This document shows, one piece after another, positions 51,973 to 58,634 of a stretch of 64,000 nt of DNA; position 1 is the first letter of the stretch, and the number at the start of each line of letters is the position of its first letter. Source of the stretch: a virus. Taxonomy: Duplodnaviria; Caudoviricetes. Under the pieces are notes generated by a model that saw only the letters and a list, made by a program, of their open reading frames with translations, did not search any database and was not told the DNA's origin. The position numbers and the translations under genes are program-made. The DNA lies in the IMG/VR virus record IMGVR_UViG_3300032225_002102, positions 1 to 64,000 of that record; one strand, 5' to 3'.

Positions 51973-52593
51973 TTATAAAATATTTTGTTTCCATTGTAAA
52001 TTTTCTATATTTATATTTTTAGAATTATTGTCCAAATAACACACCGTAAAATAATTATTGTGTTTAATAAAATTAAATGCTCTCAATACTTCTTTTGCAA
52101 CATTAACTCTTTTATACGAACCATTTTTATACAAATTACAAGTTACATAATTCTCTTTATTATTAAATCCTTTATATAATTTTTTACTAGATTCAATTTC
52201 AACAATATTTCCTAAATTAGAAATTATATATCTTTCTTCATATCCATAAACAGGTAAAAATATTTCATCCTCTAAAGGAGTATAAAAAATAGATTTAAAA
52301 TTCTTTGTTTCTTTTTTTATTTTTGGAAATGGTTTATCTACCCAATATAAATTAGAAACTTCATTATTTAATTTATTACCATCTAATCTTTTAACCCATT
52401 TATTTCCCATATTTTCAACAGGATTAAAAACTTCTAATACTACTCTATGTACTAAATAATCCTTTGATTTAACCTTAAAAGATTGATACCCTGCTTTAGA
52501 TGTTTTTAAATTTAGTACCCCTCCACTTGGATTTTTAACATTACCCAAATTTGATACTTGATAACCACCCTTAAATTCTTTAAAAATTTCCAT
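51973..52593 (-). CDS. Tandem NUMOD4-HNH protein, catalytic His apparently lost
   Basis: Two YxxSNLGN..V..VL..F..DxNxxN...NLxW units; VKRLDGN and VCYLDNN replace the usual VNH(K/I)DG. Confidence 0.75.
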   Translation of the reverse strand: MEIFKEFKGGYQVSNLGNVKNPSGGVLNLKTSKAGYQSFKVKSKDYLVHRVVLEVFNPVENMGNKWVKRLDGNKLNNEVSNLYWVDKPFPKIKKETKNFKSIFYTPLEDEIFLPVYGYEERYIISNLGNIVEIESSKKLYKGFNNKENYVTCNLYKNGSYKRVNVAKEVLRAFNFIKHNNYFTVCYLDNNSKNINIENLQWKQNIL

Positions 52594-52787: not shown

Positions 52788-53303
52788 ATGGCATTAGTTA
52801 CAGTTAAATACCTTGGTTCTACCTCAACAGGTAGATACCATAAGTACGAAGTGATACCAACAATCACACCAGCAAAACCTGCTTCAGGAGCAGGTGCTAC
52901 AGAAGTAGAAGCTACTCCTGAAATAGTAAACACTCACGTAGCAGAACTTACTGCTGACGGTGTTGAAATGAACAAGAATCTCGGAGTTACGGGATTCCTT
53001 TCGCAAACACATCTTCACACAACTCCAAAGGTTGGAGATACTGTAGAAGCGGACGTTCGTGCATTCGTAAAGAATGCTACTACAACAGTAAACTTCTTCC
53101 ACGGTATTGACCGTGCAAAGCAAGAAGCTTTTGCTTCTGCAAATAGGTTAAATCGTGAATTTGCGGAAGTTGCAAGCTTTGCGAAAAAGCTTGAGGAGTT
53201 CGATATTAGTGCAAATGATATCAAAGCATTCGAAGAGATTAAGCTCCTTAAGGAACGCAGAAAACTCATCACAGCACAGTTGAAAGGGTTAGATGATAAC
53301 TGA
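52788..53303 (+). CDS. First plus-strand (early) gene, hypothetical; possible OB-like domain plus coiled coil
   Basis: 171 aa, visibly more GC/CpG than the rest of the window, followed by a strong terminator. Confidence 0.7.
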   Translation: MALVTVKYLGSTSTGRYHKYEVIPTITPAKPASGAGATEVEATPEIVNTHVAELTADGVEMNKNLGVTGFLSQTHLHTTPKVGDTVEADVRAFVKNATTTVNFFHGIDRAKQEAFASANRLNREFAEVASFAKKLEEFDISANDIKAFEEIKLLKERRKLITAQLKGLDDN

Positions 53304-53957: not shown

Positions 53958-54206
53958 ATGACAAAGAAAAAAGAAAGAGGTTCATTCAACCTATCTTTAT
54001 CCACAGTTAGGAGAAAGAAAAGGTTGGATTCTTACTTTGCTTTTACACAGCAGAGAGAAGAGGAAGCAGAATATGCTTATTCTTACTTTCGTGGTTTGTT
54101 AAAAGCTAACGTAAGAATAGGTTGTGGTTGTGGTTGCGGAGGAGATAGTGTAAACGAGAGTTTATATTACCTTGGAGCAAGCATATATCGCACTCTAAAC
54201 GATTGA
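53958..54206 (+). CDS. Small protein with GCGCGCGG motif
   Basis: ORF with A-rich leader. Confidence 0.55.
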   Translation: MTKKKERGSFNLSLSTVRRKKRLDSYFAFTQQREEEAEYAYSYFRGLLKANVRIGCGCGCGGDSVNESLYYLGASIYRTLND

Positions 54207-54310
54207 AGTTTCTCCCTTAAAAATTGGAGATAAGATTCGGAGTTTAACTGTACTTGGCAACAGAAACAGTTACTTTTATTTTTTATTTTATCTTTAAACA
54301 AAAAAAAACA

Positions 54311-54673
54311 ATGTTGAAAATTAATTTATCTGGTCATTTTAATAAAAATCTTGCAGAGAAAGGTTTTACCTTTCCTGGAACTGTTCAGATTAATCCTGAG
54401 AAATCTTTTCAGGATAATTTAGAAGCAGTAACTAAATTCTTACAAGGATTAGGTGTTGTTTCTGATAGCAATGTAACTATTGCTCTTCCTGGAATGAGTG
54501 TGTTAGCTACTATGGTTACAGTAGCATTACATGGTTTGACAGGACAATTTCCAGAAATTGCTCCTTTGTTTAGAAATGAAAATGGAGATTTTGTGTGTGT
54601 GGAAACAATAGATTTACAAACAATGAGGAATCATGTTTGTAGAAATCTACGTGAAAGCATTATAGAATTATAG
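54311..54673 (+). CDS. Csx15-like (CARF-related) protein
   Basis: Start MLKINLSGH at 54311; IALPGMS..A...V.LHGLTGQFP..F...ETIDLQ.MR..R matches the recalled Csx15 pattern NFSH..LPGL..LHG..G.FP..E.I.LQ..R. Confidence 0.65.
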   Translation: MLKINLSGHFNKNLAEKGFTFPGTVQINPEKSFQDNLEAVTKFLQGLGVVSDSNVTIALPGMSVLATMVTVALHGLTGQFPEIAPLFRNENGDFVCVETIDLQTMRNHVCRNLRESIIEL

Positions 54674-54859
54674 GTTAAAGTGGTAAATGATAATAAAGTA
54701 GGGATATTATTTCTCTACTTTTATTTTCTTTTTACCTGAATATGAAGATTAGGTAAATTTCTTATATATGCAAAGGATGTTTTGGATTTATGTAGATGTA
54801 CATAAGAAAAATAGTTCCGAGAAGTTAATCAGACTACTTGCATTAAGTTATATAAGAAT

Positions 54860-54889
54860 AAAAGAAGTAGATTAGTTCTACTTCTTTTT
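54860..54889. terminator. Bidirectional terminator
   Basis: AAAAGAAGTAG-attagtt-CTACTTCTTTT. Confidence 0.7.
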
Positions 54890-54905: not shown

Positions 54906-55358
54906 TTAATTAGTTAAATATTTTATAGATTCTTCTTCTACAATATTAAAACTTTCTATTTGCTTTCCTTCAATGATTGCATCAATTAAAGTTTTTCTAT
55001 CTACTTGTGATTCTCTCCAAACAGTTAAAGGATTTAATTGATATTGTCCTTTTGCTAATTTAACAACAAGTTTAGAATGACATAATCTATCAATACATTT
55101 ATAAAATGTTTGCTCGTTAAAATTTTTACCTATATCTTCTTGTATTTGAGTTTGTAATAATTTGTTTGTGTTAAACACATTTAACTTATTACTATTTTTA
55201 GATAAGTATAAAAAAATTTGCATATCTAATAACGAAGATAACTTTTTAGTTAAATCTAAAACATTGTCATACAATTGTGTGTAATTATCTTCAATTTCAA
55301 TGTAACCTTTCTTTTGAGTAGTTACAATCTCTTCTGTTTTAAAATAAAATCTGCTCAT
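54906..55358 (-). CDS. RepL-like winged-HTH replication/maintenance protein
   Basis: YTQLY..QIFLYL..EQTFYKCIDRL....LV.KLAKGQYQLNP..W. Likely ATG at 55358 with a promoter box at 55383-90. Confidence 0.7.
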   Translation of the reverse strand: MSRFYFKTEEIVTTQKKGYIEIEDNYTQLYDNVLDLTKKLSSLLDMQIFLYLSKNSNKLNVFNTNKLLQTQIQEDIGKNFNEQTFYKCIDRLCHSKLVVKLAKGQYQLNPLTVWRESQVDRKTLIDAIIEGKQIESFNIVEEESIKYLTN

Positions 55359-55478
55359 TTGAAATTTGTTTAAATTATAATACAAATATACTATTTTAAA
55401 TCTACAATAACTAATCAATACTATACTAAAATAATTAATATTTTATTAGGAATTGTAAATTATTTTATTATGAGAGAT

Positions 55479-55675: not shown

Positions 55676-55730
55676 TTTCTATATATAGTTATTTTACTAT
55701 ACTGATGAGTTCTTAAGAACGAAATAGAAA
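55676..55730 (+). ncRNA. Type III hammerhead ribozyme
   Basis: Stem III TTTCTAT/ATAGAAA, cleavage triplet AUA 55681-83, stem I TATAGT/ACTATA, core CTGATGA 55702-08, stem II GTTC-ttaa-GAAC, GAAA 55721-24. Confidence 0.85.
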
Positions 55731-57893: not shown

Positions 57894-58026
57894 AATTTTA
57901 AAAATAGCTAGTATATTTTTTATAATATTAAGTATACTCAGTTTCTTCAAAGGAAACAATGTAAATTTTTTTATAACATCATTCTTATGGATTAATGCCA
58001 TGGGATATTTAATTAAAGAAAAATGA
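57829..58026 (+). CDS. Small two-TM membrane protein (true start probably later)
   Basis: Hydrophobic pair; ATGA overlap with lysozyme gene. Confidence 0.45.
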   Translation: MEIWQNSSILSTKKTLKNLNTKILKIASIFFIILSILSFFKGNNVNFFITSFLWINAMGYLIKEK

Positions 58027-58634
58027 AAAACTTAAGTTTAGCTACATTAAGTGTAGTTCTTTTTGTTCTAACTTGTTCTTGTTCAAATGCAGAACAAGTT
58101 AAAATAGTGAAAGATAATCCAGCTTTTTCTCCTACACAAAAATATCAGATAATGGTATGGAATATAAAAAAAGCTGAAAATTACAGATCTGATATTTATA
58201 AGTGTCAAGCTAAAAAAAAAACAACTGGATGGGGATTCACCAATGTTAAAAGTGTCAAAAACATCCAACATGCTGATATTATTTTAAGAGATATGGTAGA
58301 AGAGTTACATAGTATAGTAAAAAAAGAGTACCCTAAGCAAACATACCTTCAACAAGCAGCAATAGTAAGCTTAATATATAATACTGGAGATTTAAAAGGT
58401 ATTAAAAAATCAAAATTTGCTAAATCTTTAGTAAAAAATGATATAGATAATGCTGTAGCAGCTTTTAAAGCTTGGAATAAGGTAAAAATTAAAAAAGGTA
58501 AATACATTGTAAGTAAAGGATTAGTAAAACGTAGAACTTATGAAGCAAAATTGCTTAACAATACGTTTACTATGAATGATTACAATAAACTTAAATCTGA
58601 GATTTCTCAGATATACAAAGAAAATAGATTTTAA
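58023..58634 (+). CDS. GH24 phage lysozyme with N-terminal signal/lipoprotein peptide
   Basis: E-x8-C-x5-T triad (ENYRSDIYKCQAKKKT-TGWG), SLIYNTG, W.K, GLVKRRTYE; leader ending VLTCSCS. Confidence 0.85.
   Translation: MKNLSLATLSVVLFVLTCSCSNAEQVKIVKDNPAFSPTQKYQIMVWNIKKAENYRSDIYKCQAKKKTTGWGFTNVKSVKNIQHADIILRDMVEELHSIVKKEYPKQTYLQQAAIVSLIYNTGDLKGIKKSKFAKSLVKNDIDNAVAAFKAWNKVKIKKGKYIVSKGLVKRRTYEAKLLNNTFTMNDYNKLKSEISQIYKENRF

Follow-up and report, generated by a model that had tools for sequence, protein, structure and literature searches.

A stand-alone Csx15-family gene in a crAss-like phage as a candidate counter-defence factor

Why would a phage keep, with no CRISPR machinery around it, a gene whose cellular relatives are typically linked to Cas10? 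This question is raised by a stretch of 64,000 nucleotides (positions 1 to 64,000 of the IMG/VR virus record IMGVR_UViG_3300032225_002102, hereafter the window), in which the open reading frame (ORF) at 54311-54673 on the plus strand encodes a protein of the Csx15 family, P0001, delineated by an ORF call, hidden Markov model (HMM) and profile matches, and a residue alignment. A sequence-only reading of the window had described this gene as encoding a 120-aa protein with the motif order of Csx15, followed by its own terminator and unaccompanied by cas genes or an array. The ORF does exist and does encode 120 aa. By analogy with the characterised family members, we consider it reasonably probable (about 0.62) that P0001 is an unaccompanied Csx15-family protein with a seemingly intact catalytic site, which serves its crAss-like phage in counter-defence.

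P0001 scores 45.4 bits (expectation value, E, 8.3e-12) against the NCBIfam equivalog model NF040560 (CAS_Csx15), whose curated cut-off is 35, and the same match was recovered again in a six-frame search of the phage's own record. The Csx15 model of PADLOC matches it with E 1.3e-7, and the best PDB match of P0001 as a single sequence is a solved Csx15, 9tet (E 3e-4). Exhaustive searching of 1.8 billion representatives with phmmer returned 65 matches; the query, phmmer matches and word-index matches were combined into an alignment of 54 proteins of similar length (A1), every one of which matches NF040560. The profile built from A1 aligns with the whole domain of the solved CliCsx15 (9teu_A, E 2.3e-15, positions 3-114) and PfCsx15 (9tet_A, E 2.7e-15, positions 4-114), and it also finds the Csx15 domain of the CbCash Schlafen fusion (9ylu, E 1.8e-7). 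Pfam and PHROGs offer no family for P0001, the sole Pfam match, DUF4857 (E 0.16), being noise. The curated HMM score above its cut-off, the profile matches to solved structures and the conserved functional residues described below bear out the motif order noticed by the sequence-only reading, and P0001 almost certainly belongs to the Csx15 family, as judged from its sequence.

Some members collected on the way deserve a separate comment. Two single metagenomic proteins, P0034 (327 aa) and P0043 (319 aa), carry tandem-duplicated Csx15 domains and match the "duplicated Csx15" cluster, proposed as a route to SAVED domains in the October 2026 preprint. The multi-stretch matches P0033 and P0042 were discarded as repeat-protein noise.

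Two preprints have mapped the residues on which Csx15 proteins depend. Chi et al. described PfCsx15 as a sponge for cyclic tetra-adenylate (cA4; cA3 to cA6 denote rings of three to six adenylates) and CliCsx15 as a slow cA4 ring nuclease, both stacking as head-to-tail dimers (10.64898/2026.01.21.700848). One face of the dimer contributes S9/H11 in PfCsx15 and H13 in CliCsx15, the other H82/H90, F106/Y113 and R116/R120/R123 (10.64898/2026.01.21.700848). HaCsx15 and CsCsx15, studied by Klimavicius et al., are broad ring nucleases that cleave cA3-cA6, 3'3'3'-cAAG and 2'3'3'-cAAA (10.64898/2026.10.26.761840); their composite active site exists only in ligand-induced filaments, with H8 and R125 catalytic and R118 serving binding (10.64898/2026.10.26.761840). 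Mutating these residues abolishes activity or binding (bioRxiv 10.64898/2026.10.26.761840; bioRxiv 10.64898/2026.01.21.700848).

All of the residues mapped by mutagenesis are retained in P0001, as S7-G8-H9, H74, F94 and R106/R111/R114. Their correspondence was read from A1-profile alignments to PDB chains, a 7-residue offset being allowed for and the numbering of the two preprints being followed: H9 equals H8 of HaCsx15 and CsCsx15, H11 of PfCsx15 and H13 of CliCsx15; H74 equals H82 of PfCsx15 and H90 of CliCsx15; F94 equals F106 of both HaCsx15 and PfCsx15 and Y113 of CliCsx15; and R106/R111/R114 equal R118/R122/R125 of HaCsx15 and R116/R120/R123 of PfCsx15. Across the phage clade the mapped functional residues are invariant or at least 90% conserved. 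H9 of the head motif S7-G8-H9 is invariant in alignments A1, A2 and A7; in the central motif A-L-H74-G-L-T-G-Q-F-P, conservation reaches at least 90% at H74, G78, F80 and P81; and F94, the hairpin aromatic at the adenine-stacking position, is present and conserved, as are the C-terminal R106/R111/R114. One deviation concerns the arginines, spaced R-x4-R-x2-R in P0001 as against R-x3-R-x2-R, with 1 extra residue between arginines 1 and 2.

An AlphaFold2 model of P0001 made with A1 reached a predicted local distance difference score (pLDDT) of 96.2 and a predicted template-modelling score (pTM) of 0.87. It depicts a small domain of alternating strands and helices, in which a hairpin at 86-96 carries F94. 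The nearest solved folds are CARF and SAVED sensors, including SAVED domains of CBASS (cyclic-oligonucleotide-based antiphage signalling systems), and published Csx15 shows the same spectrum. In the Foldseek search against PDB these SAVED/CARF matches were weak (best E 3.4e-3), the search of BFVD gave weak matches to small uncharacterised viral proteins, and the viral SAVED ring nuclease AcrIII-2 (9r8s) produced a weak half-domain match (E 0.066, TM score 0.44). The solved Csx15 entries were not among the matches of either fold search. Hence, where a fold comparison had been proposed as a check of the sequence-only reading, the model does bring out the CARF/SAVED likeness, through weak matches, while the direct fold match to Csx15 did not appear. 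Overall, P0001 is confidently modelled as a Rossmann-like fold related to CARF and SAVED.

The carrier of this gene is a phage. The complete record (G000) is a 129,291-bp IMG/VR virus with an estimated completeness of 87% and a GC content of 25.7%. Its minus-strand block encodes a portal protein, a large terminase, a major head protein and a giant virion protein. Relatives of the portal come from crAss-like phages (Cellulophaga phi17:2 and phi4:1, cr128_1, cr50_1 and others), the best match being Leptolyngbya phage Lbo-JY46 (34%). We found no Cas10 of the Csm1 or Cmr2 type, no SAVED domain and no CRISPR-like spaced repeats anywhere in the 129-kb record; the absence of cas genes and arrays noted for the window thus holds and extends to the whole 129,291 bp. 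The Cas10 linkage typical of cellular Csx15 is lacking here, as is expected for a viral copy. Since no tyrosine or serine recombinase was detected in the record either, the phage looks non-integrating.

The record also gives some indication of the host. A Shine-Dalgarno core precedes 2 of its 88 long ORFs, which equals the background, and A makes up 56% of the 5' leaders. Missing Shine-Dalgarno motifs together with A-rich leaders are typical of Bacteroidota and their phages. Based on these two features and on the crAss-like portal, the host is probably a member of Bacteroidota. The 129 kb were also searched for tRNA genes, and none was detected.

Close homologues of P0001 (60-88% identity) occur only on metagenomic contigs. 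Three of the related sequences, namely the contig L002 (130,622 bp) and the IMG/VR records G001 (136 kb, locus L006) and G002 (91 kb, locus L007), carry the Csx15-like gene in the same position, where the leftward block of genes meets the rightward one. Within a 12-kb neighbourhood this gene is almost the sole stretch with detectable nucleotide similarity: its product is 69-73% identical between relatives, while the flanking proteins are 27-37% identical or absent. When our record is compared with G001, the Csx15-like protein (71% identity) turns out to be better conserved than the large terminase (50%), the portal (37-39%) and the major capsid protein (28%). The comparison of G001 with G002 is sharper still, with Csx15-like genes identical at 98% of amino acid and 94% of nucleotide positions and portals that belong to the same PHROG, yet are only ~21% identical (E 0.017). 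Because such near-identical copies reside in phages with so dissimilar portals, and because the region is mosaic among L003, L006 and L007, we conclude that the gene has been exchanged horizontally. The gene is under purifying selection, with pairwise ratios of nonsynonymous to synonymous substitution rates (dN/dS) of 0.03-0.21.

More distant members (31-45% identity) come from unrelated IMG/VR records, 92-217 kb long, in which this portal family is missing. When 5.8 billion proteins were searched with a profile, 55 clusters emerged, all of them metagenomic and none named Csx15. Among the related contexts inspected, none has a cas-type Pfam match; the contexts of sufficient length for a judgement look phage-like, and several contigs are too short to tell. 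No homologue was detected by tblastn among 50,697 deposited phage genomes, where megablast of the region found no match either, and narrow peptide patterns, run twice against 185,579 species genomes, brought up no relative, which is weak evidence of absence from cells. P0001 therefore belongs to a compact clade (113-125 aa) that is so far metagenome-only and much of which is phage-borne. The sequence-only reading had spoken of a captured ring nuclease or sponge, a word that suggests a recent pick-up from a host; with no close cellular relative found and a compact, metagenome-only clade whose judgeable contexts are phage-like, such a recent capture is not supported.

Two observations on these related sequences stand apart. 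In G002 (C1:58455-60887, locus L022), the portal gene appears as two adjacent phrog_6547 matches, the second with 2 in-frame TAA codons, so that it could be a split gene, an intron or a case of stop-codon recoding. On another phage-like contig, 90 kb long, a TnpB-like gene (OrfB_IS605 / Cas12f1-like_TNB; L023:5322-6527, minus strand) lies ~3.5 kb from a Csx15-like gene.

How might such a protein serve the phage? Following the characterised Csx15 proteins, dimers of P0001 would stack head-to-tail around cA4, or possibly cA3 or cAAG. The ligand would be sandwiched between the "head" face of one dimer, with H9 and F94, and the "tail" face of its neighbour in the stack, with R106/R111/R114, and would be held, and probably cleaved, at the interface of the stacked dimers. 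In this way, a second messenger made by the host Cas10 of a type III CRISPR system or by a CBASS cyclase might be depleted, and the host effectors activated by cyclic oligoadenylates (cOA) might be kept silent during infection. The assembly into dimers and filaments, the identity of the ligand, the choice between cleavage and sequestration and the anti-defence role we infer by analogy. There is a precedent in CliCsx15, which renders a cA4-dependent type III system ineffective in vivo (10.64898/2026.01.21.700848). A counter-defence role of the gene appears likely in view of its location in a phage genome, the absence of Cas10, the strong purifying selection and the horizontal spread between distant phages. 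As for true catalysis by P0001, we put the chances at about even.

The retention of both histidines in P0001 makes cleavage somewhat more likely than pure sponging. Still, P0001 might be a non-catalytic sponge that binds cA4 in filaments in the manner of PfCsx15 and, after strong expression, sequesters it stoichiometrically. Two points speak for such a sponge. PfCsx15 shares the conserved S/H, H, F and Arg residues but shows no nuclease activity, and still inhibits a cA4-activated RNase (10.64898/2026.01.21.700848); since it keeps these residues while being inactive, sequence alone cannot separate cleavage from sequestration. Besides, the 1-residue insertion in the arginine helix of P0001 may disturb the composite active site. 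On the other hand, an invariant H9 and an H74 conserved in at least 90% of the clade are more than binding alone seems to need, with the caveat that H11 of PfCsx15 is itself required for binding, and the large amounts of cOA produced by type III systems (10.64898/2026.01.21.700848) disfavour a stoichiometric mechanism. We regard the sponge as a rather unlikely alternative to a catalytically intact counter-defence factor.

The remaining explanations concern the target and the very role of the gene. One could suppose that P0001 is directed mainly at CBASS or another cyclic-oligonucleotide defence signalling through cA3 or cAAG, not at type III CRISPR, given that CsCsx15 and HaCsx15 cleave cA3-cA6, 3'3'3'-cAAG and 2'3'3'-cAAA (10.64898/2026.10.26.761840) and that the closest solved folds include CBASS SAVED domains. 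Nevertheless, cellular Csx15 is linked strongly to Cas10 and weakly to CBASS (10.64898/2026.10.26.761840), CliCsx15 and PfCsx15 are cA4-specific (10.64898/2026.01.21.700848), and a symmetric dimer is suited to cA4, so that CBASS as the main target seems improbable to us. Finally, the gene might have nothing to do with counter-defence, being either the phage's own cOA sensor or regulator, used for instance in the timing of lysis or the exclusion of competing phages, or else a neutral passenger. Csx15 can act as a sensor domain in effector fusions such as Cash (Schlafen-Csx15), and 25% of cellular Csx15 genes belong to genomes without type III loci. However, P0001 has no fused or conserved neighbouring effector, its flanks differing between relatives, and neutrality is difficult to reconcile with a dN/dS of 0.03-0.2 and with retention across horizontal transfer; both possibilities are very improbable.

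The immediate surroundings of the gene were inspected as well. ATG 54311 is the supported start; a longer reading from TTG-54254 is possible but needless, and the ATG is favoured because in every homologue just 0-7 residues precede the conserved K-L/I-N-L-S-G-H motif. Upstream lies a conserved 5' leader with short hairpins (54209-54310, plus strand), recognised by blastn against the related contig L002 and by alignment: similarity to L002 begins ~100 nt 5' of the ATG, with 74% identity across 54209-54645. The final 15 nt of the leader are A-rich and contain no Shine-Dalgarno motif. No usable promoter motif common to several genes emerged from a crude k-mer search, and sigma-70-like sites in the region show no excess over the background level. 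An Rfam match to alpha_tmRNA at 54157-54274 was disregarded as weak (20 bits). Downstream, 22 nt past the stop codon, a terminator-like hairpin of 10 pairs with a 7-nt loop, followed by the T-run TATTTTCTTT, occupies 54695-54721 on the plus strand, in agreement with the terminator that the sequence-only reading had assigned to the gene. The surrounding 5-kb region contains 8 terminator-like sites, against 1.6 expected from shuffles.

As to the early protein of the sequence-only reading, the Csx15-like gene does stand near the start of a rightward block of small genes, but an endolysin gene (58023-58634) belongs to this block too, and early expression is not supported. Its neighbours (52788-53303, 53958-54206, 54906-55418 and others) belong to no family and are not conserved in relatives, and for this reason we propose no partner gene. 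One of them, 54906-55418, is convergent to the Csx15-like gene, with a separate terminator at 54888-54860. In the interval between the terminators of these convergent genes we noticed a conserved intergenic element of ~95 nt (54766-54860), which has ~80% identity to L006:7495-7588, L007:7618-7711 and L003:7388-7483, even though nucleotide-level conservation does not extend to the flanking genes. It forms a hairpin with 5-6 compensatory pair changes and has an invariant 3' half (TAGTTCCGAGAAGTTAATCA-N-ACTACTTGCATTAA); its folding z-score is -3.2 on the minus strand and -1.3 on the plus strand, with no match in Rfam. This element may be a small RNA. Further downstream, at 55676-55730 on the plus strand, there is an Rfam match to Hammerhead_3, the type III hammerhead ribozyme, over the full length of the model (44.6 bits, E 8e-8), just under the gathering score of 48.5. 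On the other side, ~1.7 kb from the Csx15-like gene, a homing-endonuclease gene of the HNH/NUMOD4 type (51973-52593, minus strand) marks the edge of the divergent junction, and L002 carries other mobile nucleases, Endonuclease_7 and T5orf172, at the equivalent junction. Such mobile nucleases are consistent with a recombination hot spot.

What does this locus add to the current picture? The idea of viral Csx15 as an anti-CRISPR is already in print as a proposal (bioRxiv 10.64898/2026.10.26.761840), while an earlier 2026 preprint held Csx15 to be absent from phages and perhaps of no use as an anti-CRISPR. We add a crAss-like carrier with no detectable integrase, conservation above that of the terminase, evidence of horizontal transfer, and a compact, metagenome-only clade in mostly phage-like contexts. 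An intact copy that is better conserved than the terminase and exchanged between phages with nearly unrelated portals is the signature expected of a working counter-defence gene, and the locus thereby offers a clean test case for viral Csx15. If P0001 is active, viruses would be shown to use filament-forming ring nucleases, and there would be a handle on how crAss-like phages cope with the cyclic-nucleotide immunity of their hosts. One could speculate further, and quite tentatively, that the whole compact clade consists of phage-resident, horizontally traded, active ring nucleases of broad spectrum, protecting crAss-like and several unrelated large phages from both type III CRISPR and CBASS. 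If this is true, no anti-CRISPR would have been assigned to crAss-like phages earlier, and the published opinion that Csx15 is too slow for viral use would be overturned.

Among the known systems, the closest to P0001 are HaCsx15, CsCsx15 and CliCsx15 (PDB 9teu), stand-alone single-domain members of the same family that have in common the head histidine, the central histidine, the aromatic residue and the arginine triad. In contrast to CRISPR-associated Csx15, P0001 is encoded by a phage devoid of Cas10, is shorter (120 aa versus roughly 125-132) owing to the absence of the insertion that follows the G-H motif, and sets arginines 1 and 2 one residue further apart; its identity to canonical-looking members of the alignment is 30-35%. 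PfCsx15 (PDB 9tet), a non-catalytic cA4 sponge, is likewise an orphan gene product unlinked to a CRISPR locus and with the same conserved residues, but in contrast to the phage-encoded P0001 it is bacterial and belongs to a divergent minor cluster. More than 20 viral Csx15 homologues from IMG/VR and env_nr, including vCsx15 of the Lokiarchaeota virus Skoll, have been reported under the proposed name AcrIII-3 (10.64898/2026.10.26.761840). They are put forward there as candidate anti-CRISPR ring nucleases. P0001, too, is a homologue of Csx15 from a viral genome of metagenomic origin, one that encodes a portal, a large terminase and a major head protein, and our record may be among the sequences of that preprint. 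Viral Csx15 was described there as rare and mostly located in prophage regions (10.64898/2026.10.26.761840), whereas the carrier here, a crAss-like phage of 129 kb, has no detectable integrase, and horizontal spread of the gene has taken place among phages of this kind. Outside the family, AcrIII-1 (DUF1874) follows the same proposed strategy, namely viral destruction of the cA4 signal on which type III CRISPR relies, although it represents a different family and P0001 has no DUF1874 match. AcrIII-2, the viral SAVED ring nuclease (PDB 9r8s), is a two-lobed SAVED protein (PF18145), as opposed to the single 120-aa lobe of P0001, in which Pfam finds no SAVED domain; however, the proposed strategy is again the same, and AcrIII-2, too, has a composite active site formed head-to-tail.
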